Below the pieces are notes generated by a model that was given only the letters and a program-made list of their open reading frames with translations, made no database searches and had not been told where the DNA came from. From Asterionella formosa (taxonomy: Eukaryota): a stretch of 42,750 nt of DNA. How positions within the stretch are numbered: position 1 is the stretch's first letter; every line of letters starts with the position of its first letter. The DNA lies in contig NKIB01014529.1 of NCBI GenBank assembly GCA_002256025.1, forward strand, positions 1-42,750. Reading direction: 5' to 3'. A program made the translations under genes and the position numbers. Shown in pieces: positions 24,150-42,318 of this stretch.

Positions 24150-25493
24150 TTACTTATGCCGTTGTGGCAATGTCGGTGTTGTTGGAATCGAAATGCCCTT
24201 GGCCTGCAATTGCTTAATTTCTCCCATCAATACTTCCATGATGCTTATTGGCCCAAAGCACATCTGCCGATTGGTTGATTCTTGAAGTGTCTCCATGACA
24301 GAGTATTCCCATCCTCCAATCCCAACCAGCTGATCCACTGTCACACTTCCTAGCACCAATGGACAATCTGGTGACAGCCTCAATACCACCGTAATCCCTT
24401 CTTGAAGAGAGCATACGATTTCTTGATCTTGACCTCCATCAGGCAATTTTCCAATTTTGGTCAAGTATAATTTGCGAAGGGTAGTGAATTCCTGTACACG
24501 GGCTTGATGAATTCTAATTCGTGCCATGGTCTCCCGTAGGACAAAGCGCAAATCTTCGACTGGACCAAGCGAGGAAGATACTTGCACCAAATCTTCGAGA
24601 GAAGGGATGTTCCATTCCAGTGTGTCATCTACGGAAACCTTGGTTGATGTGATGAAGCGTGCGCTTACCACCAACAGGGCATCTCGGCCATCCGATTGAA
24701 GTGTTATCATAACTTGATGCGAGTCCAATAAGAGTACCTTCATGGTGACCAAGTTCTGTTCCCCAGCCGTGTCTACCGCCAATATTTTCATTCCACTTAG
24801 CTCTTCCAAGACACCTCGCATTGTATCATACCATTCCTGCATTTCTTGCAACTCGGTTATCTTTGCCTTGTTCTGTTGAATGGCAATGACAGTCGTTGGA
24901 GAAAGAACACGGACTGGTTGCTTGCTCAAAAGCTGTTGTTTCTGCTCTGTTTCTGTTCTTATTTGATCCAGTTCTGCTTGCAATTCCGCTCGACGTAAGC
25001 GCAAGTTTGCAAGGCGTTGTTCTTGTGCCAGCAACTCCTCCTCCTCCAATGGCTCGTCCTCCCCGTCCTCCTCATCCTCGACAGTGGCTTCTTGAGTCAT
25101 GTCTTGCACTTGCTGAATCAAGTCTTGACGTTTGTCCACGAGTGATTCGTATGACTGAATCATTGCCACGAACTTTTTGTTGACTGCAACAGCCGTCTCT
25201 TTCAGGCTTTGTTGCGTCATCAATCGGCGGTCTTTCAGTTGTTGCTTCGCCTCCTCCGTCGGTAAGTCCGGAAACTCCACCCCGTCCCCGGAAAAGGTGG
25301 CCAAATGCTCATAAAAGACTTGCTGTGTCCTCTTTTGTAGGTAGGTATTCCGAGCACGCTGATATCGCTCTAGAATGTCGTCAGAAACAGAAGCAGCACC
25401 TTCGCCGCAGGCAGATTGTGTAAATTTGTCAGGCAGTTGATACGCTTGGAGCTGTTCCAACCGTTCGTGCAGTTGCTGCTTCAGTGTGGACAT
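24150..25493 (-). CDS. Coiled-coil protein with a C-terminal alpha/beta (RWD-like) region; possible Zwint/Sos7/Kre28-type kinetochore subunit
   Basis: Intronless 447-aa ORF with a long heptad region. 'YQRARNTYLQKRTQQVFYEHL' and 'ELQEMQEWYDTMRGVLEELSG' resemble remembered Sos7-family motifs; two repeats of a beta-rich/helix unit follow. The CDS is solid; the family call is tentative. Confidence 0.7.
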   Translation of the reverse strand: MSTLKQQLHERLEQLQAYQLPDKFTQSACGEGAASVSDDILERYQRARNTYLQKRTQQVFYEHLATFSGDGVEFPDLPTEEAKQQLKDRRLMTQQSLKETAVAVNKKFVAMIQSYESLVDKRQDLIQQVQDMTQEATVEDEEDGEDEPLEEEELLAQEQRLANLRLRRAELQAELDQIRTETEQKQQLLSKQPVRVLSPTTVIAIQQNKAKITELQEMQEWYDTMRGVLEELSGMKILAVDTAGEQNLVTMKVLLLDSHQVMITLQSDGRDALLVVSARFITSTKVSVDDTLEWNIPSLEDLVQVSSSLGPVEDLRFVLRETMARIRIHQARVQEFTTLRKLYLTKIGKLPDGGQDQEIVCSLQEGITVVLRLSPDCPLVLGSVTVDQLVGIGGWEYSVMETLQESTNRQMCFGPISIMEVLMGEIKQLQAKGISIPTTPTLPQRHK

Positions 25494-27878
25494 GATAGTC
25501 TGGGCTATATAGTAAGCAGGCAAGCAAGGGGAGAGGAGCAGTAAGTACCGGTAGTTGATGTCGACTTTCCTTGGTGCACTGGTATCTATCAAGGTTGAAC
25601 TGATTCAAAGCAAGCCATCATCCATGCTGAACCTAAATTATACATCGTACCAGGTACCAGGTACCATTTGAAAATGATCATTGTGGTAAGTACCAGGTAT
25701 CATTATAGATACCGGTACCAGTACTACCGGTATATTTCCAGTACCTGGTACCGGGTTTACTACATACGTTAGTCAAGTGTATAGTCGTTGAAAACTGCGT
25801 GCGAACGGCGCAAAATTCAAATCTTCATTTTCATCATATATTCCGGTATGTATGACTGTATTTATCTACAGCTGTAGAACTGCTATCAAAACCTCGGGGG
25901 CCTCCTAGTGGCTGTACATACGTAATGTGCATCCATTTTTGGTCTGCTGCTTTGTTGTAACATATACAGGTATTTACAGGCACCAGGTACCAGGTACTAG
26001 TATGTTTGCAACAATCTCCTCAGTTGTAAAACTGATTGAATTTTACACATAGTACTTTTTGCTTCAAACATTTGTTGATACAGTGGCTGGGCAATTGAAA
26101 GTCATTGTAAAAAGAATCCTAATTATTCCTGTGTTACAATAACTGAATCAATATTGTTTCCTGATGCCACCAGTTGAGTGATGCAAAATGAGGGGTTGAT
26201 TGCTGTCATTTCGATTTTCGACTTTTCATCTCTGGAAGGCTGCCAAGATTTGCCAACAAATGAAGAATTCGAAAATCTCAGATTGCAGCAATTTCATAAT
26301 TTTGGAGATTCATCACTCATATATTCCTTTGTTGTAGACATTGTTCTCCCACTCATAACAACATCATGGTAAAGCTAGTACATAGCTATTATGCATAGAG
26401 AACAATACAAGTTCACCATAAATATGAGATTGGTGCACATCACCTGTATTGTTGTTGTTGCAATCATTGTCGCCATTTTTCTCTTGTTTGTTTTGATTGA
26501 TGTCACATCACACTGGTTGATTGTTGGGTCTAGGCAGTGGTTGCTTGGAGGTGAGGGAAGAATTGTACATGTAGCCCCTCATCACCATGTTGTGGCACAA
26601 ACAAACATCAACACTTCCTAACGGTAATTGACGACCAGCAGATTGGATATTGTCGAATATCTTTGTCCACCAGAATCTCATGCAGTTGTCCATTTTCATA
26701 CCTCCTCTTTCTTGCAGAAGCAGCGATAACAATGATATGAGGAATGGGTTGATTTTCAATAGAACTGGCGAGATGAAAGTCCAAGCAAGGAACATATTTC
26801 AAGGCGGACATTGGCAACTAGAAAAAGAACAAATTGGCGAAGGTTTTAAGCAACGCTATAATCAACAGATCATCAGGGGCAAACGAAGCATCAAACAGGT
26901 AGTTCTATGGACATGTGTAGTGATGATTGAGGAGCGGCGAAATACGAATTTTAGATGGATTGGCAGGCCATCAATATTTGGAATGCCATTGCATACATTA
27001 TGCCTGTTCATTAGGTCACCAACACTACCGAAAGTATGACCATTGTTGATCGTCTGATTGATTTAACATTGCTAGTGGTTTTGTCCTGCTATATTGTGCT
27101 CGAGGGGTATCTCAATAGCCGATTTTTCCGAAATAAGCAAGGAGTAACATGAAAGTGCTATCGGTTGGGCATTTGTTGACAGCTCCACTAAAACTTGGTA
27201 AAACTTGAAAAGTTTTAAGCATAGGATAAAAACGGGCTAATACAGACCAAAAAAATATAAACATTTAACTACAGTTAAGGTTGCATGTGTAAAGCAAAAA
27301 GCATGAATGCAACACTGTTGGCAATGGCAATCCAGCTACCGGTACCAGGGTCGTTTGATTTTATGGAAGCCAAACAATTTATGTCAATTTTCACCATCAC
27401 TTCACAAAAAGGCAATCCAAGAAAACATCCATGTTCCTTTATTTTGCAATAGGAAACCAGTTTGGTCAACGCAAGAGCAATGACATATATGAATATGGTT
27501 TTGCCAAATCTTGTAATAAAGCTTAATAGTTTGCCTACAAGTGGAATCAGTGACTTGTTTACTGTGATTCTGATGAATTTTCATTGGCCATGATGGATGG
27601 TACTCTTCTTATATTATATTTTTAATGTACGGATGTGGTCTCGAAACAGTGGAGTACGAAAGGTATGGTTGGTACTTCGTGCGTTGCTTCGTGAATCCCG
27701 TCGGACCCTGTCTTTCCCTACTCCAGATTGCTTTCGAAATGTTCGTCATTGGATCAATAGTTTCATTCATCCCGCATTAGGTCCATGATTTATTTCCATC
27801 CAGTTTCAAATCAAAGAGATCAATTACAAAGGCAGCACGAGGTAATACATACTATACACAAAAAAGCCATAAACTGTT

Positions 27879-30918: not shown

Positions 30919-31700
30919 GATGGACGGTACGGGTAGTCTAGTTGATGAGAAAATGTATAGTGTCGTAAGGAACAACAATGAGGGGTGTTAGGATTGTAAT
31001 CGGCCTAGGTTTATATGCACGTAGTAGTCAGAAGGGGCGCAGCGCCGCGTATAATATTGTGCGGTGCTGATGCGGTATTCCGCACTTTTTGTAGAAATGT
31101 ACTCCGTACCACAATGCATGTACCATATGGCCAGTGCAACAAAATGATGGACACACTCAAAATCATAAGTAGCAAAAATAACAATTACCAAAAAAAATAA
31201 GTGTAAAGAAGGACATGGATGCTAAACGAAGGGTTGGCTGGTGCGAGGCTGAGCGTCTGTCCTACTACGGATGGGATATGCGCTGGGAGAGGCGGAGGCT
31301 TTCGTTTACGGGTTCGGAAGGTACCTGGTACCTGCACCAGTTATAAATGGCTTTGAGCCACGGACATAATTATATCGTTTTCCGACTACCGGTAATTCAA
31401 CAGGTGGATGATGTTTTGCCATCAACATAAAATTGATGGACAAGCATCTTTCACTGATCTATTGGCTTCACAGTGTATCCCAGTTATTGTGATAATTTAT
31501 TTCATTGATCATTCTGAAATTTGGGCTAGCAACACTTTTCTTTGGTCTGTCCCTTGATGCCATGTAATAATAGGCATAGTTCTTCCTATAAATCGATGTG
31601 AACCAGTTATCAAACTGCCCTATTTTAAAATTCACGTTAACGCTGTTACCATCACAATACAATTATTTCTAAATACCTCACAGGAAAACTCCAGCGTTTG

Positions 31701-33812
31701 TTAATATACCTCCACGTGCCACTGCTTCTTAGCCTTTAGGCCCTTCAACCAGTCATCATAGACTAATCCTTTCGATTTAGCAACAGTCTCCAACATATCT
31801 TGAATTCCGGGCATCATACCTTTTAATCCACAAAAGTAGATGTGAGCACCACTATCCAACTTTTGGAAAATTTCATCAGCGTACTCTTCTACCTTATCTT
31901 GAATGTACATCTTTCCTCCCTTTTTGTTTTCCTGCTCCCTGGAAAGAGCATAATCTAGACGAAAGTTATTGGGATATTTCGTCAAAACATCTTGCCATTC
32001 ATCATCATACAATAATGCATCACTGTTGGCCACGCCAAGAAAGAGCCAGGCTTGGCCCTTGTAGACTGCCGCTGCAGGCGTATCTTCCACAAACAACCGG
32101 CGGATAAACCCTCGGTACGGGGCAATGCCGGTACCCGTTGCTACCATAATGTAATCTGTGGCTGGATCTTCTTCGGGAAGGAGCATGACCTTTCCGGCCG
32201 GTCCAGTCATGTCAACTTGATCACCTGGTTGAGTGTCACACAAAAAGTTGGAGCAAACACCCTTTTTGGCAGGATCGTCCGCCTTCAAGTCTGGATCCCA
32301 ATAAGTAGCACGCCTGACACAGAGTGATCCTGTTTTACCAGTCATGTCATCCCCATACCGTGTGGACGCAATGGAATACAGACGTACCGAATGAGGCTTG
32401 CCATCCTTTTCACGAACTCCTGGTGGAATGACACCCCACGATTGTCCTTCCCAGTAAGGAAATTCTCCTTTGTGATCAATGACAATATGACAAGTTTCTC
32501 CTGTTGCCTTGGGGCCCACAATTTTCTTGGTACTAACCACCTTTCCAACAAAGGGCGCTTTGTTTTTATAGACATTCACCGGAACTTCTGACTGATCCCA
32601 ATAGGGGTCAGCTTCTAAGAAATCTTGTTTCTTCGATTTGGATGATCCCATCCATTCCTTGGCAGTAAACAATGCCAATGTTCCCAACGCCAAAACCCCT
32701 CCTGTACGTCCTGCTAATACAATGGCAGTCATGATAATTCCAGCACTGACAACGCCAGTAAAGATGGATGACAGAGCTGTCAGAGTGGGCATTCCTAACA
32801 AGACAGCTCCCATAGCCCCGGTCCATGCTCCAGTTCCTGGAAGTGGTACTCCCACGAAGGCTGCCAAGGACGCCCATTGTTTTTCAGGAGATGCCAAGCC
32901 AATAGATGATGATTTTTTGGCAGCACGGTCCAGTAGTGGTTTGAGGAGTGCTCTTGAATATGTAAAAACCAAATGAGTGATGAGGAATCAGAATGAGTCA
33001 GTGTCGAATCAATTGTAGCAGACAAACACACGCGAAGAATAGAACGTACTGAATTCTTGAATTCTTCAACAAGAGTAAAATGGGTATAATTGGCACCATA
33101 TTTCCAAAGATACTGGCTGCCAGTACAGTAGGGATAGGCAGTCCCATCCAAATCCCAACTGGAATGGCTCCACGTAATTCTACTACTGGCATGGCTGATA
33201 TGATTGCCAGAATAGCAATATCAGGAATACCAAAGGTACGAAAGAAATTGGCAATTTTTTGGCCTGTATGCAAAGTGACGGCTGCAACAGGTGCTTCTTG
33301 AATGACCTTTTTTTTGAACCAAGCTGCAGCCGTGGCAGTAGGTGTGTGACAAATGGCAAGAGCACAAAAGAGCATGGCGGCTGTGGAAAGAATCTATGAA
33401 AATGTTGATGCATTGGTAAAAGTTTTTGTAAGAAAAGGTAAGGTGTGAATGATTACATTTTGGGCGAGAAACATTGAGAGTGAGAATGAACTCCAATTCA
33501 TATTTATGTGTTTACCTTGATTGACTTGTTGGTAGTGGTTGTTTCCTTCCTTGATTCAATCATGTTGTTGCTGTTGTTGTTGTTGTCGTCAAGATTCATG
33601 TATGAGTGTAGTGTCATTGCACTGTTTGCATTCCTACTGTTGATACTTGTATTGACAATGGTACGACGGTAATGTTGATGTTGCGTAGGCGCCATCATGG
33701 AATGATGACTATACAGTCCACCATAGCTAAAGGCTTTCACTCCTGCTGTCAAGAGTGTGATAGCAACAATAGCAACACAAGCAATCGTTGGAGACTTGCG
33801 AAACACTATCAT
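31701..33812 (-). CDS. petH: Plastid-targeted fusion protein: small-multidrug-export-like (Sm_multidrug_ex) membrane domain + ferredoxin-NADP+ reductase, 630 aa (exons 33812-33516, 33393-33050, 32952-31701)
   Basis: Signal peptide ending 'GVKA|FSY'; membrane domain '[35 protein letters not shown]'; FNR '[66 protein letters not shown]'. GT-AG introns 33515-33394 (phase 0) and 33049-32953 (phase 2) preserve the frame. Confidence 0.9.
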
Positions 33813-34183
33813 GTTGTTGGTAAAAGTGATGAACAGTTTTTCTCGATGGTGATTTGAAAAAGCAAATAAAAGTGCCAATCATAGCAAAGCAAAAATGACA
33901 CTGGTATCTGTCATGATGCGGCTCATCAACGACAATCATAGTACGTACTCCGGAGTGTCGGTACTCCTATGTACATGCTCTACTGCTACAGTACTGTACC
34001 GTACGTGTTGTTACTGTTTCTCAAAGATTTGCTTTGGTTGATGTGCGTCTGCAATTATACCAGGTACAAAGCTACATACATAGGAGATAGGAGCTCATTA
34101 TATCCTATAGTACTGAAACGTCGTGTCATACTAACTCTGTAAATGCAAATGTAGTACTGGTATGTCGACGGTCGAGATCAGAC

Positions 34184-34376
34184 GTATGATGATGATGATG
34201 ATCATGGGTGTGATGGCCGCATGTCATATCATGACCTCCAAGAACCAGCTCATCCGCCTTAAGGGATACTGCAAAAATGCAATGCAATGCATTTGCTATT
34301 TTATCATTCTTCCTCCTCCTCCACCTCCTCCTCCTCCTCCTCCTCCACCACAACAACACAACAACATCATCATCAT
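34184..34376. repeat. Trinucleotide microsatellite cluster (GAT)n, (CCT)n, (CAA)n, (CAT)n between divergent genes
   Basis: ATGATGATGATGATG at ~34187, a CCT run at ~34311-34348, then CAA and CAT runs. Confidence 0.8.
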
Positions 34377-34509
34377 AGCTGACTACGACGTATCAGTATA
34401 TCTTTCAAGCAACCTGATAATAAGCAATTGTTGCAAAATCCTTCGATCTATCTTTCCATTGATCGATCCATAATCTAGAGAGGAACGCCAAACGAAATCC
34501 ATCCACGAA

Positions 34510-34971
34510 ATGAATCGACTTTCGGTAACGACAAGCAAAATGACACTGCACTTCTCCCAACAACAAAGACAACCTCTCGTTGTTTGTCGACAACAGCATC
34601 GGACAACAACAACAACAACCAAACAAACACCATTCAATGGTAAATCACTTCCCTCGACTTCACCACTTGATGCATTGCGTCCCATTGTTCGTCGGAAAGC
34701 ACCCGCATCGTCCTCACGCCATTCACCACAAAAAGCATTTGGCATGACCAAGGTGGATTACTCCATACCACCGCCATTGTATCGATCTCCACCACCACCA
34801 CCTATTAAAACACCGTACTTGGCCATTGGGACGGCGGTGGCTTGCTGTATGGGTGTCGCATGGTTTTCTATATATGGAAAGAATGATGCTTTGGAAATGT
34901 GGGAAGCCATGGAATCCGGAGAGTTGTTTATTGAAGCAGACGATGATGACGACGATGATGATGACGAGTAG
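34510..34971 (+). CDS. Hypothetical single-pass membrane protein with a basic Ser/Thr-rich N-terminus and an acidic tail
   Basis: 153-aa ORF; TM 'YLAIGTAVACCMGVAWFSIY'; poly-Asp C-terminus; convergent with the thioesterase gene. Confidence 0.6.
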   Translation: MNRLSVTTSKMTLHFSQQQRQPLVVCRQQHRTTTTTTKQTPFNGKSLPSTSPLDALRPIVRRKAPASSSRHSPQKAFGMTKVDYSIPPPLYRSPPPPPIKTPYLAIGTAVACCMGVAWFSIYGKNDALEMWEAMESGELFIEADDDDDDDDDE

Positions 34972-35033: not shown

Positions 35034-36118
35034 CTACAACTTGCCATCCCGATAGTCCTGAAGCAAGGACACAAATTCTTGTTTATCAAACAACCCTACA
35101 GCCTTGTGACTCAATCCAGCCTTTTGAATGGCCACACGTAGTTCCTTCACCGACATGTCCTTGGCTTCCTTGACTTTAATATTGCAAGTACCATCCACGG
35201 GAAGGACCTTGGATAAAAAAGCTTTCACATCTTTCAATTCGTCCATATTGATTGAATGTTGCAAGCCAGGATAGGATTTCAATTCATACGCCGTAGCACC
35301 ACGATCCAACAAGAGCTGCTTTGTTTTTTGTGCAATGGCATGTGTCACCAATGGATCAGACATGCCATGACAATGCAATGTTGGGGTCTGAGGGTGCTTC
35401 ATGGACAATTGAGATACTGCAGGAACGTACGCAGAAAGGCACACAATCCCAGCCAGCTGCTGTGGCAATTGAAATCCAGTAAAGAGAGACAGGGCTCCGC
35501 CTTGAGAAAATCCCATCAACACCATGCGCTGATAGGGCAGACCAGTCATCACATGTTCAGTTTCCAAAATGGATTCGAGAGTGGTTCGACTATCTTGTAT
35601 TCCAACACAATTCTCATTCGACCGCTCGTCCAAGCCAGTAATATCATACCAACTAGGCATGGGCATGCCCATATTCATAGTCACTCGCTGCGTCGGTGCT
35701 GTGGGGAGGATGACTTTGAGGTAGGGGAATTGGGAAGCAATCATCTGTTGTTTGTGTGGGAAGGGTGTTGTGTCGGTATGCGTGTATTAGTTTGACAGAT
35801 CGAAAGGCCTCTCTCTCTCTCACATACACACACACACACACACACGTAGTAACGTACCTCACCGACATCCACCAATCCTTCCGCTGTATCACCAAGGCCA
35901 TGAGAAATCACGACCAATCCACTTTGGGTTTCTTCCTTTTTGGGAGAAATCGTAATCGTCCCGCCATTTCGTACAGTTACAAAACTCATGCTTCGTGATG
36001 TTGTTGCTGTTGCTGTTGCTGTTGTACTAGGACTGCAGGATGTCAAGGTAACAAAAAGAGGAAACACTAGAGAACAACGACGACGACAAGATGTGAAGAA
36101 GAAGGAAGATGGCAGCAT
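35034..36118 (-). CDS. Acyl-protein thioesterase / lysophospholipase (APT1/LYPLA-like, Abhydrolase_2) with a C-terminal SAP/HeH-like extension (intron 35857-35745; alternative start 35989)
   Basis: 'HGLGDT', 'PTAP..VTMNMGMPMPSWYDI', nucleophile motif 'GFSQGGA', 'HGMSDPLV', 'YPGLQHS'; phase-0 intron GTACGT...AACAG. Confidence 0.92.
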
Positions 36119-38625: not shown

Positions 38626-41600
38626 CTATTCATCATTGAGGGATACAAGGGCAGTGCGGCGTTTCTTCTGTGGAGGCGGGCGTGGCTTACCAGCAACATT
38701 AGAAGTATTTTGTGCTCCCGATCGAGTAGCACCTGAAGAAGTAGGCCGAGGCCTACTTGCCACGATGATTGGATCATTCTCCTTGTCTGACTCCTTGTCC
38801 GGGCTGGGTTCCGACTCAGTGCCAGAATCTGTATCGATGGCCAATGTGGACCCCAACAGACTTGTTTGCTTGTCATTGTCGTCATCAAGTTCTGCTGGTT
38901 CCTCAGACGCGCTTTCTTCATCTGTCTCGTCATCTTCTGTTTCCTTCAAGTTGGCATCGCCGTCAAAGGACTTTTCACCGTCGTCATCATCGTCATCGTC
39001 CACAATAAAATCGGTTGTGCTTGTCTCCTCGTCCTCTTCATCATCTAAGACTTCCCTCTCCACTTTGCCTCCATTTTTGCTCCCTCCTTTGCAAGAAATC
39101 CCTTTTTTGCTGGAAATTGCTTCATTGTTGTCGACAGCTTCATTGTCCGATTCTTCGGCTTCTACGAGTTCATCGAATTCTTGGATGGCTTCGAGCTCCT
39201 TCATTGCTTGACGTTCCTCTTCTTCTTGTGCACGTTCTTGGATCAAGCTCCAGGTAACTTCTAAACCAAAAACGAACGAGACAGAATCATAGCCCTTCAT
39301 TGCAGCTCGAAACACAGGATCGTCAACAGTGTCAGTGCTATAGTGATGCGACCAACTACGCATATTCTCTTCATCGGGCATTCCAATCTGCTCCTGGTAG
39401 TCATCACCTCGCTCATCCGATACGGCGGAAGCACAGACAATTGCGTCGTCGCCATTTTCATCAGCGGGATCCTGCTCATCAGAGTCAGATTTCATAGACA
39501 TGAGCAGCGGGACAAGGTTCGTCCACTCCTCCACCCACCAACTCTGCAGTCGACGAGCAACATCAGCAATCTCCTGACCAGGAGACCAAACCTTCATTAT
39601 GTTGGAAAATATGCGATTGACATCCTTAGAAAAAGTTGAAACACTTTCGTACGAGTTGGAATGTTCAACAGGAAGCTCGAGTCGCTTTCGTATGATAGCA
39701 AGGTCCATCGGCTGCTTGACAAGTCTTTCCCATTCCTCCTTCGTGCTTCCGTGATCTTCAGGATTTATTGCCTTGGCAATGTGTTCCCCTCCATCTTGTT
39801 CTAACATCTTTATCAAAAGTTCCTTGCAAGCTTTCAACTTCTTAGGCAACACCTTCTTACTTTCCAACTCAGCATTATCAGCAATAATTTTGCACCGCTC
39901 GCATTGAAGCTTATCATGAGTATCAGATGGAGTTCCACATCTAAGCTTGAAAAGATTCCGTAAGTCTTTGGTACTTAGTGCATTCACTTGTTCTTTGTCG
40001 TCAACAACCGACTGAAGCCCCTCCTTTGAAAGCTGACGCTGAAATATCTTTTCCTCGACTGTTCCAGTTGCAAGAAATCGATATGTGAAGCATCTCTTTT
40101 TCTGACCATCACGCCAGCAGCGAGCAGCAGCCTGCTTGTCCACAGCAGGGTTCCAGTCAGGATCGAACAATACCAATCGATTGCCACCAATAAGATTTAA
40201 ACCACAGCCACCAGCCTTACTAGAGAGCAAAAATGCCACAAGTGGTGTACAGGGATCGTTGAATTCGTCAACCATCTTTTGACGCTTCTTCATTGAAATA
40301 CTACCATCTAGACGACAAAATCCCCAAGAATTCTCGCGACACATTTTTCCAATGAGATCGAGTGTCTGAGTATAGTTCGACACGATCACAATCTTATCGG
40401 CCCCGTTGCCAGGTTTTCGCATCTCACGCATCAATCTATACAATACAAACATTTTTCCGCTCCACTCGGGATGGACGGGGGAATTTTTCCCAGAAGATGG
40501 AAGAAACTTGGCAATGCCATCGACTCCCGCCATGGGTTTCTTGTCTTCGTTTCCGTCCTCCGAATAATTCGATTGTTTCGAGCATGCTCGCCGACCACCA
40601 GTACTTCTAGCTTCCTCTTCAACAATCAAGCTTGGGTGGTTACAGAGCTTCATCAACATTTGAATGTATCCAAGGCAATTTGCCTGCTTGCCACTCATCA
40701 CGTGTTGCAAATCCTTGGAGTTGACAAGGTGCTGGTAAACGTTTTCTTGCATAGGTGTCAAGTTGCAACAGACAACTTGAACAAGTTTTGGAGGTAGGTG
40801 CTCAGCATTTAGGGTGTTGACACGACGAAGAATAAACTCATTCACAATAGAGGACATGTCGTTTTGTATCTGCTGCATTCTTTTCTTTTGAGCGTCAGTC
40901 GCATCCGGCTCTCGGCCTCGAAGAATTGGAAATAACATATTTCTTCTAAATTCCTCTTGACTTCCAAGGATACCAGGATTTGTGAAATCCACCATAGCGA
41001 AGAATTCTTGTAGATCATTCTGCATTGGAGTTCCTGTCAACAAAACACGGCGCTTGACTGGTAACGATGCCAGAGCCTTGGAGGTTTGGTTCTCACTGTT
41101 CTTTAGGCGATGGGCTTCATCACAGACGAGCAAATCACAACAATCCTTGTGCTTGATGAGCCTTGTCACGTGCGTCCTAATCGTTTCGTAGCTAACAATG
41201 AGGATGTTAAACATTCTAGTTTTGACGAAAATGTCAAGATTCTTCTCGACTGTCTTCTTGTCGGACTCTGCGAGCGCCAGTGTTTTGACGACACCTGGAC
41301 CGAGCCACTTGACAAATTCATTTTCCCAATTCTTGACCAAGGAGCAAGGGCAAACAACTATAACACGTTTGGCAGTAGGTTCTTTGTTTGCGGTGATGGA
41401 AGTCTTTAGAAGAGTGTAAATAAGGCATACAGACTGGAGTGTTTTACCGAGACCCATATCATCCGCAAGAATGCAACCTTGACCCTTGAAATCCCGGAGG
41501 CCCATGACGCACTGATAACAGAATAATACACCTTCTCGCTGATGCTCTCTGAGCCATTTGGCTAAAACTGGAGGTACGAAGACGCTTTCTTTGGCATATG

Positions 41601-42318
41601 CTTGTATGGGGGCTAGTGTATCGATGAAATAGGGTTGAGGGACGCAAAACAAAATGGGCTACAATCATCGAAAACTTGATGCCGACAATTTGGACTCACC
41701 TGGACGAACAACTGTGAGCTCTTCTTCGACCCCATATTCATCGGGAATAACTTCTTTTACTCTATTTACGGTAAAGGTTGAGAGCATGGTAAGAAGCAGC
41801 ATGGTTCATTCATCAAAAAAGTCTGTTGATGCGACTTACAATTGTGGCGGCAAGCCCTTGGGCTCGCCTCCTTCGTGGGGACTTTCCCATAAGCGCAACG
41901 GTTCAAATGGTCGTTCCGGTGCTTTAGATTCTTCTGATTCACTTCCACTCTCTTCACTTGTATTGCCATCACATCCTCCCCGAACTGGCAACTTGAACGA
42001 CAGTCCACGACCCGCGCGCGCCATGAGCTTTTGCATCCCGTTCATTCGTTTGCGTTGTCCCAAACTGCTTTGCTGCAGTGCTTCATCGGCTCGTTGCGTA
42101 TACCCTCGACGTTTGATACTTGGTCTCTGAAAGCCCCTTTGAATGCCTAGTCCTGGCATAAGAGGAGCCTTGCGAATCATCATTTTCGCCCCTGGCTGAA
42201 ATAGTGAGTTTGACTTTCCGGGCAAACTGCTGCAGCTAAGTAGCGACGGCGCTGGACCGTTCAAGCGACGCCCATCAGGCCCAAAGGAAGAACCGCTCTT
42301 TTTGCGACCGACGAGCAT
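38626..42318 (-). CDS. RAD54: RAD54 family SNF2 DNA translocase with an inserted bromodomain and acidic tail (exons ~42318-41840, 41761-41700, 41612-38626; start uncertain)
   Basis: 'LAKWLREHQREGV..GCILADDMGLGKTLQ', 'CDEAHRLKN', 'TGTPMQNDL', 'PILRGRE', 'KIVIVSNYTQTLD', 'LLSSKAGGCGLNLIGGNRLVLFDPDWNPA..QAAARCWRDGQKK', 'EEKIFQRQ..K', 'SDTHD..C..C'. Introns 41839-41762 (phase 2) and 41699-41613 (phase 1) keep the frame. Confidence 0.93.

Follow-up and report, generated by a model that had tools for sequence, protein, structure and literature searches.

A ferredoxin-NADP+ reductase fused to a DedA-like membrane domain in diatoms: a candidate membrane-anchored plastid enzyme

Gene structure and transcription

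The window analysed here comprises 42,750 nucleotides of a contig (NKIB01014529.1, assembly GCA_002256025.1) of the diatom Asterionella formosa. On its minus strand, from position 33812 to 31701, lies a gene of three exons whose spliced product of 630 amino acids combines a membrane domain with a plant-type ferredoxin-NADP+ reductase (FNR). The product is 80-90% identical to diatom proteins, and the gene is a nuclear gene of a diatom. The observation on which the original prediction was built, namely that the FNR is fused to a membrane domain, is confirmed: a single open reading frame (ORF) of 428 codons (31701..32987, minus strand) holds the second half of the membrane domain, a short basic linker and the entire FNR without any stop codon, and both domains share one exon with no intron between them, just as had been claimed.

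All elements of the gene are read from the minus strand. The ATG start codon is found at 33812-33810 and the stop codon at 31701..31703. Exon 1 (33812-33516) is followed by intron 1 (33394..33515, 122 nucleotides), exon 2 (33393-33050) by intron 2 (32953..33049, 97 nucleotides), which interrupts the PF06695 domain, and exon 3 extends from 32952 to 31704. Both introns have GT..AG borders. The spliced model is collinear with twelve full-length homologues and shows no gaps at the exon joins; four of these twelve are transcriptome-derived MMETSP proteins.

For the analysis of transcripts, RNA contigs from four runs belonging to three studies were aligned to the window, and 19 RNA records were found to cover part of the locus. 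The original prediction had pointed to the region 32560-32700 and to the two introns as the places to be checked against RNA evidence. The contigs of all four runs skip intron 1 exactly (33394-33515) and also skip intron 2, here with two unaligned letters at the acceptor edge; the length still preserves the reading frame. The junction between the two domains is spanned in all four runs, and single contigs bridge 32560-32700. Membrane domain and FNR are carried by a single mRNA: a contig of 2030 nucleotides (run X3, record 7; 31623..33874) extends from exon 1 to beyond the stop codon, and another from a polyA library (run X2, record 4; 31899..33556) from exon 1 deep into the FNR.

Compared with the window, the contigs of each of the four runs have other letters at 31655, 31659, 31696 and 31699, just beyond the stop codon, and at 31716 within the last coding codons; a further mismatch is located at 32951-32952, at the acceptor edge of intron 2. 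Taken together these differences point to another allele or strain, and the two-letter mismatch beside intron 2 has the look of allelic variation. An extra T within an A-run at 33307, present in one run, is probably an assembly error.

Domains of the encoded protein

The FNR occupies residues 323-630 (31704..32627, minus strand) and is a complete plant-type enzyme with a terminal tyrosine. In the Pfam search the product of exon 3 matches NAD_binding_1 (PF00175) with 91.6 bits (E-value 6.4e-26, cut-off 22). A profile search with PF06695, NAD_binding_1 and FAD_binding_6 had been proposed beforehand; the first two profiles were indeed recovered, whereas FAD_binding_6 is absent from the Pfam matches at E<=0.01. 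The maize root FNR (1jb9), however, aligns without interruption across the FAD half as well, query residues 121-416 matching chain residues 21-316 with 461 bits (3.1e-137). Leaf or cyanobacterial FNRs reach about 275-296 bits. In FNRs the conserved motifs form the cofactor and substrate sites, and the flavin is stacked against an aromatic residue at the C-terminus. The sequences around the sites for FAD and NADP, like the terminal tyrosine, were described as intact in the original prediction; they are identical to those of the maize root enzyme in the alignment and nearly invariant in 70 aligned sequences. In the model of a homologue the predicted local confidence (pLDDT) of this domain is mostly above 85, including the FAD-binding strands. 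As far as can be read from its sequence, the FNR domain is complete and catalytically intact.

The linker between the two domains is formed by residues 312-322 (32628..32660, minus strand). Among 57 full-length fusions, its length ranges from 6 to 48 residues with a median of 10, mostly about 6-12 (in seven rows the printed length is too long as the end pattern was missed). A methionine is found in the linker of only two of these 57 fusions, and in that of the window protein. No conserved motif, including any cleavage motif, was found in the linkers of the 57 fusions. Long inserts of up to 48 residues, which are acidic, Glu/Ala-repeat or Pro-rich, are present in P0094, P0319, P0320, P0325, P0334, P0117 and P0321.

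The core of the membrane domain comprises residues 141-295 (32709..33270, minus strand, including intron 2), as delimited by Pfam and by the secondary structure of the homologue models. It consists, in this order, of an amphipathic helix, re-entrant loop 1, a first transmembrane helix (TM1), a basic amphipathic loop, re-entrant loop 2 with a motif of 10 residues, and a second transmembrane helix (TM2). According to hydropathy and charge, a basic Gly-rich turn and a short hydrophobic stretch ('TM3-like') follow at residues 296-311 (32661..32708, minus strand). Exon 2 matches positions 1-40 of the PF06695 profile with 36.6 bits and exon 3 matches positions 52-121 with 61.4 bits; both scores exceed the cut-off of 30.7, and homologues match the whole profile at 102-119 bits. 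The assignment to the Sm_multidrug_ex family (PF06695) made in the original prediction is thereby upheld, but the description of this family as functionally uncharacterised needs to be qualified: according to two papers (bioRxiv 10.1101/2020.12.18.423352; 10.1101/2020.06.27.174763) it represents the fourth family of the DedA superfamily and has two re-entrant loops. In the same papers the DedA-type core is described as a pseudo-inverted repeat, the unit of which runs from an amphipathic helix through a re-entrant loop to a transmembrane helix, and other members of the superfamily have been reported to be lipid or polyprenyl-phosphate translocators.

AlphaFold2 models were available for a fusion (P0009, mean pLDDT 78.9) and for a stand-alone membrane protein (P0141, mean pLDDT 73.4). 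Both predict the expected order of helices and helix-break-helix pairs at both motif sites, with a core of high confidence. The prolines of the re-entrant loops are nearly invariant in the 70 aligned sequences. In the ochrophyte proteins, whether fused or not, the core is preceded by a further hydrophobic segment ('TM0'), and TM2 is followed by the basic Gly-rich turn, after which comes another hydrophobic stretch, about 16 residues long. A sequence relative of the membrane domain was not found in the PDB (best E-value 3.4), and Foldseek returned no match at E<=0.001. With VIA-align we obtained weak matches to ArsB (best Z 5.9) and to transporters of the SLC13, TRAP and VcINDY type, but these Z values of 5-5.9 are below the level that the tool regards as meaningful, and we base no assignment to a family on them.

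The N-terminus was predicted to consist of a signal peptide, a transit-like region and a second hydrophobic stretch with an Ala-rich end; translation and hydropathy show a first hydrophobic stretch, the Ala|Phe junction and the second, Ala-rich-ended stretch. The start codon and the putative signal peptide span residues 1-27 (33732..33812, minus strand; hydropathy window residues 6-26), with the predicted end at Ala|Phe. The rest of exon 1 (33516..33731, minus strand, residues 28-99) encodes a poorly conserved region resembling a transit peptide, which in the homologue model has a pLDDT below 50. 'TM0', at residues 100-123 (33322..33393, minus strand), has an AxA-type end. In diatom proteins targeted to the plastid an aromatic residue occupies position +1 of the signal-peptide cleavage site, which is the rule used by ASAFind. 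In a crude motif test, 58 of 62 scanned sequences contained [AGSC][FWYL] within residues 13-38. In homologues 'TM0' opens with a basic n-region, continues with about 20 residues of h-region and closes with an A-x-A motif; this arrangement, which also shows in the charge counts, was seen, by eye and without counting, throughout the full-length fusions listed (55 of 57 could be scanned), and it is less uniform in the six stand-alone proteins. Judged by its shape, 'TM0' resembles a cleavable lumen-type signal such as a thylakoid transfer signal, and the N-terminus as a whole has the appearance of a diatom plastid presequence with a signal-like AxA domain behind it. That the FNR itself has no presequence of its own, as had been noted before, is supported.

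Distribution, conservation and origin

The occurrence of the fusion in diatoms and in MMETSP data, a survey of which had been proposed, was studied with two protein libraries. In the library clustered at 90% identity, all 120 proteins among the matches listed for the exon-3 product carry both PF00175 and PF06695, with identities of 74-100%, which excludes a chance combination; many of them are gene calls of 411-447 amino acids representing the last exon only. Full-length fusions are named for Ditylum, Dactyliosolen, Leptocylindrus, Epithemia, Nitzschia, Chaetoceros and Seminavis. A further listing again gave both domains in 120 out of 120 among the matches listed, and adds Triparma strigata, Corethron, Fistulifera and names similar to Pseudo-nitzschia. 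The fusion is shared by diatoms and Triparma and is also present in model diatoms such as Thalassiosira pseudonana; a fusion sequence from Phaeodactylum was not seen among the matches listed.

In the library clustered at 50% identity those fusions collapse to one representative. A second cluster (58% identity) also covers both domains, and the protein closest to its full-length member P0287 is a protein with both domains from Triparma strigata, a member of the Parmales. Among the 150 representatives listed, every other full-length protein is FNR-only or membrane-only. The FNR-only representatives are 62-69% identical and include proteins from Prymnesium and Amorphochlora as well as a root-type FNR from Artemisia. 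The membrane-only proteins have 260-320 amino acids and contain PF06695 in all those checked; among them are a transcript from the raphidophyte Fibrocapsa and a protein of the brown alga Choristocarpus.

Conservation along the chain is very uneven. In the 57 full-length fusions the mean pairwise identity is 0.22 for the presequence, 0.38 for the signal-like segment, 0.76 for the DedA-like core, 0.47 for the last hydrophobic stretch together with the linker, and 0.85 for the FNR. Five of six stand-alone orthologues are 56-61% identical to the core of the fusions, and the sixth, P0141, is 76% identical.

This sixth protein (307 amino acids, derived from a transcript) is as close in its core to the fusions as these are among each other, and it carries an acidic tail where the FNR would begin. 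P0141 could be a paralogue without the fusion, could stem from a lineage in which the fusion was lost, or could reflect an intron that was retained.

The core is too conserved for a passive anchor, which needs hydrophobicity only; it retains the motifs typical of its family, and its orthologue in other ochrophytes is a stand-alone membrane protein of the plastid. For these reasons the membrane domain keeps a function independent of the FNR; it is no mere anchor and has probably retained a translocator-like activity of its own. Since the stand-alone proteins of Fibrocapsa and Choristocarpus have the same flanking hydrophobic segments, the membrane protein works without an FNR. A redox-linked role for the whole PF06695 family, as suggested in the original prediction, does not follow, because the same membrane protein stands alone in these two organisms.

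In a maximum-likelihood tree of 34 FNR domains, several long-branched rows of which are unreliable, all 14 fused proteins are united in one clade (100/99), within which the Triparma group makes up a subclade. The fused clade groups with plant root-type, haptophyte and chlorarachniophyte FNRs and is split from Sphagnum and the cyanobacterial-type rows with 100/96. We conclude that there was a single fusion event before the split of diatoms and Parmales.

Besides the fusions, a cluster of unfused FNRs (P0123, about 490-500 amino acids, 64% identical) has a signal peptide ending with Ala|Phe; its N-terminal extension, about 130 residues rich in Ala, Ser and Glu, is soluble. This protein may be a second diatom FNR isoform. 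As a lead, the FNR-only clusters nearest to P0123 in the Atlas are mostly from Bacillariophyta.

Function of the fusion protein

The following function is proposed for the fusion protein. The presequence would import it into the plastid, where the membrane domain would insert into a membrane, most probably the thylakoid. The FNR would then sit near the bilayer on the stromal side, covalently attached, and would exchange electrons between ferredoxin or flavodoxin and NADP(H). Diatoms would have at least two isoforms of plastid FNR, the fusion being one of them. That the FNR is stably anchored in a membrane, most likely the thylakoid, and faces the stroma has in our estimate a probability of roughly 0.6.

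The orientation suggested here depends on the arrangement of the hydrophobic segments. The loop preceding re-entrant loop 2 is the most basic segment of the membrane domain (mean 7.8 Lys and Arg, net charge +4.8) and, being by far the most basic one, should face the stroma. The charge pattern and 'TM0' agree with a lumenal N-terminus and a stromal C-terminus on condition that the last two hydrophobic stretches form a hairpin; starting from a lumenal N-terminus, the FNR would be stromal only if TM2 and the last hydrophobic stretch are arranged in this way.

Several points weigh against this interpretation. AlphaFold2 predicts no such hairpin: TM2 and the next hydrophobic stretch appear as one helix of 48-51 residues, in the fused as well as in the stand-alone model. 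With respect to the membrane, we take the plastid solute transporters among which an Arabidopsis PF06695 protein has been listed to be envelope proteins. This protein, At2g02590, is found among the plastid solute transporters in PMC2246286, and the listing points to the envelope rather than to the thylakoid. The full-length form of the fusion has not been seen at the protein level. From soluble extracts of T. pseudonana, 2D gels yielded an FNR, B8CGL9, which could be either isoform, and such extracts also had FNR activity (PMC5299434). Two FNR isoforms (Thaps3a_4586 and Thaps3a_4914) are reported for the plastid fraction of the same species (PMC6683858), and two petH identifiers for proteomics of Thalassiosira oceanica (PMC5570362). 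A soluble FNR and two isoforms imply that the fused form need not be the main photosynthetic enzyme. Furthermore, the RNA contigs do not reveal the ends of the transcripts, and an additional internal start of transcription would be compatible with them.

As to the predicted helix itself, in both models (md0245497461e and md1199370ddd5) its 48-51 residues exceed a single membrane crossing.

A soluble enzyme could be explained if the fusion served only to import the FNR and a plastid protease cut the linker afterwards, releasing a soluble FNR and a free membrane protein. The FNR in the soluble extracts of T. pseudonana would fit such a precursor, as would a linker that is short, variable in length and weakly conserved, the occurrence of the membrane protein on its own in other ochrophytes, and the end of P0141, with its core identity of 76%, just past the membrane domain. 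However, the linkers of the 57 fusions share no cleavage motif, the second, unfused FNR isoform can account for the soluble enzyme, and the head-to-tail join with its minimal linker has been retained since before the split of diatoms and Parmales. We regard cleavage as unlikely. A start of translation within the gene was rejected as a general source of soluble FNR: with a linker methionine in only two of the 57 homologues and in the window protein itself, internal initiation is ruled out as a general feature. A stable anchor could also be located in the inner envelope, where the fusion would represent an FNR of the heterotrophic type that mainly transfers electrons from NADPH to ferredoxin, the unfused isoform serving photosystem I (PSI). 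The better match to the maize root FNR (461 bits versus about 296 bits for leaf or cyanobacterial FNR), the clade shared with plant root-type FNRs, the position of At2g02590 among solute transporters and the two plastid FNR isoforms of T. pseudonana argue in this direction. Yet the nearest unfused FNRs, of a haptophyte and a chlorarachniophyte, belong to the same clade, and because of them membership in it says little on direction or location; moreover, the signal-like AxA segment resembles a thylakoid transfer signal, and the catalytic direction can not be read from the sequence. An enzyme of this kind in the envelope is in our opinion improbable.

The anchored FNR and the DedA-like domain might further take part in one and the same process, over and above their shared location, for instance a redox-dependent handling or reduction of a lipidic substrate such as a quinone or xanthophyll. 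The strong conservation of both halves and the minimal linker would agree with this, as would the translocation of lipids and polyprenyl-phosphates reported for members of the DedA superfamily and the weak fold matches to re-entrant-loop ion transporters and elevator-type transporters (best Z 5.9). On the other hand, the membrane protein is equally conserved without an FNR in sister lineages, no residue or cofactor site linking both domains was found, and the Z values of the fold search are under the tool's meaningful level; the idea is purely inferential and such a coupling appears very unlikely. An artefact, be it a mis-assembly, against which the original prediction had cautioned, or a read-through between adjacent genes, was rejected, as nothing in its favour was found. 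Both domains lie in a single exon without a stop, independent RNA contigs from three studies cross the junction, and the architecture is common to dozens of species, including some with chromosome-scale assemblies. We consider the mis-assembly ruled out and an artefact of either kind hardly conceivable.

The reading of the fusion as a stably anchored FNR can be carried further. In diatoms and Parmales the fused protein might be the very FNR that serves PSI; the terminal NADP+-reducing enzyme of these major primary producers would then be integral in the thylakoid and attached to a DedA-type translocator, although we regard this extension as rather doubtful. If it were true, the membrane domain would position the FNR at PSI or at the cytochrome b6f complex, or couple it to a lipidic substrate, and the balance between linear and cyclic electron flow would be set in a way that no other lineage uses.

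Comparison with known FNR systems

The enzyme most similar to the FNR domain is the maize root FNR (PDB 1jb9 / 3lo8), a two-domain enzyme that can be aligned from end to end and belongs to the same clade of the tree. The solved or described FNRs are soluble, however, whereas the diatom fusion carries a polytopic membrane domain of about 200 residues ahead of the FNR in one polypeptide. Cyanobacteria also possess an FNR with its own N-terminal attachment module, the CpcD-FNR, and PF01383 is present on 91% of the members of the corresponding Atlas cluster. This module is a soluble phycobilisome-linker domain and not an integral membrane domain as in the diatoms, and the Pfam search gave no match to the CpcD-like PF01383 in the three exon products of the fusion gene. 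Among ochrophytes, the FNR-N of eustigmatophytes likewise has an N-terminal extension, which fixes the FNR near PSI (bioRxiv 10.64898/2026.08.10.743057). But according to that preprint the extension is a peptide of 43 residues on PSI's stromal surface and occurs in eustigmatophytes only, while the diatom extension is a membrane protein with no known contact to PSI. In land plants the membrane proteins Tic62 and TROL recruit FNR to a plastid membrane. Their binding is non-covalent and mediated by a C-terminal motif of a separate protein; the diatom form is a covalent fusion to an unrelated family.

With the PF06695 family, including At2g02590, the fusion shares the Pfam match and the predicted two re-entrant loops and two transmembrane helices. 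Typical members of the family consist of the core only (bioRxiv 10.1101/2020.06.27.174763), to which ochrophytes add flanking segments and diatoms and Parmales in addition the FNR. A protein of T. oceanica (K0TKX5) was already included in this family, with no mention of an FNR in the accessible part of the paper (bioRxiv 10.1101/2020.12.18.423352).

The attachment of FNR to membranes is an active research topic. Recent work deals with the tethering of FNR to PSI in Chlamydomonas, with Lhca binding in green algae and with the PSI-docking extension of eustigmatophytes. In diatoms, FNR was fitted into a stromal density on PSI by cryo-tomography (PMC8331139), and PsaS may help to recruit FNR (bioRxiv 10.64898/2026.08.10.743057); a membrane domain of FNR is mentioned in the accessible text of neither source. 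In the databases the fusions are machine-labelled as 'ferredoxin--NADP(+) reductase' and both Pfam domains are precomputed, so the architecture is publicly visible. A description of the fusion was not found in the full-text literature searched, with subscription journals mostly outside the coverage and supplements excluded, and an earlier mention is possible. Compared with Tic62/TROL, the CpcD-like domain and the PSI-docking peptide, we rate the covalent fusion to a membrane protein as a new way of the known recruitment of FNR to membranes. A covalent anchor would give a direct handle on where FNR is placed, and on how electron flow divides into linear and cyclic, within a group important for ocean productivity. 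For the PF06695 branch of the DedA superfamily it would also be the first link to physiology.

Genomic neighbourhood

The long ORFs in the vicinity show no obvious connection with the FNR gene. An ORF with an Abhydrolase_2 domain (phospholipase/carboxylesterase; 4.4e-42) is located on the minus strand at 35034-35786, and on the same strand a larger one of 1010 codons with SNF2, Helicase_C and Bromodomain matches at 38626-41658. Two further ORFs have no Pfam match, one of 484 codons on the minus strand (24150-25604) and one of 165 codons on the plus strand (34474-34971). Upstream of the fusion gene, at 34290-34370, CCT-type triplet repeats are followed by CAA/CAT-rich repeats, and one frame of this region would encode a long poly-Pro stretch.

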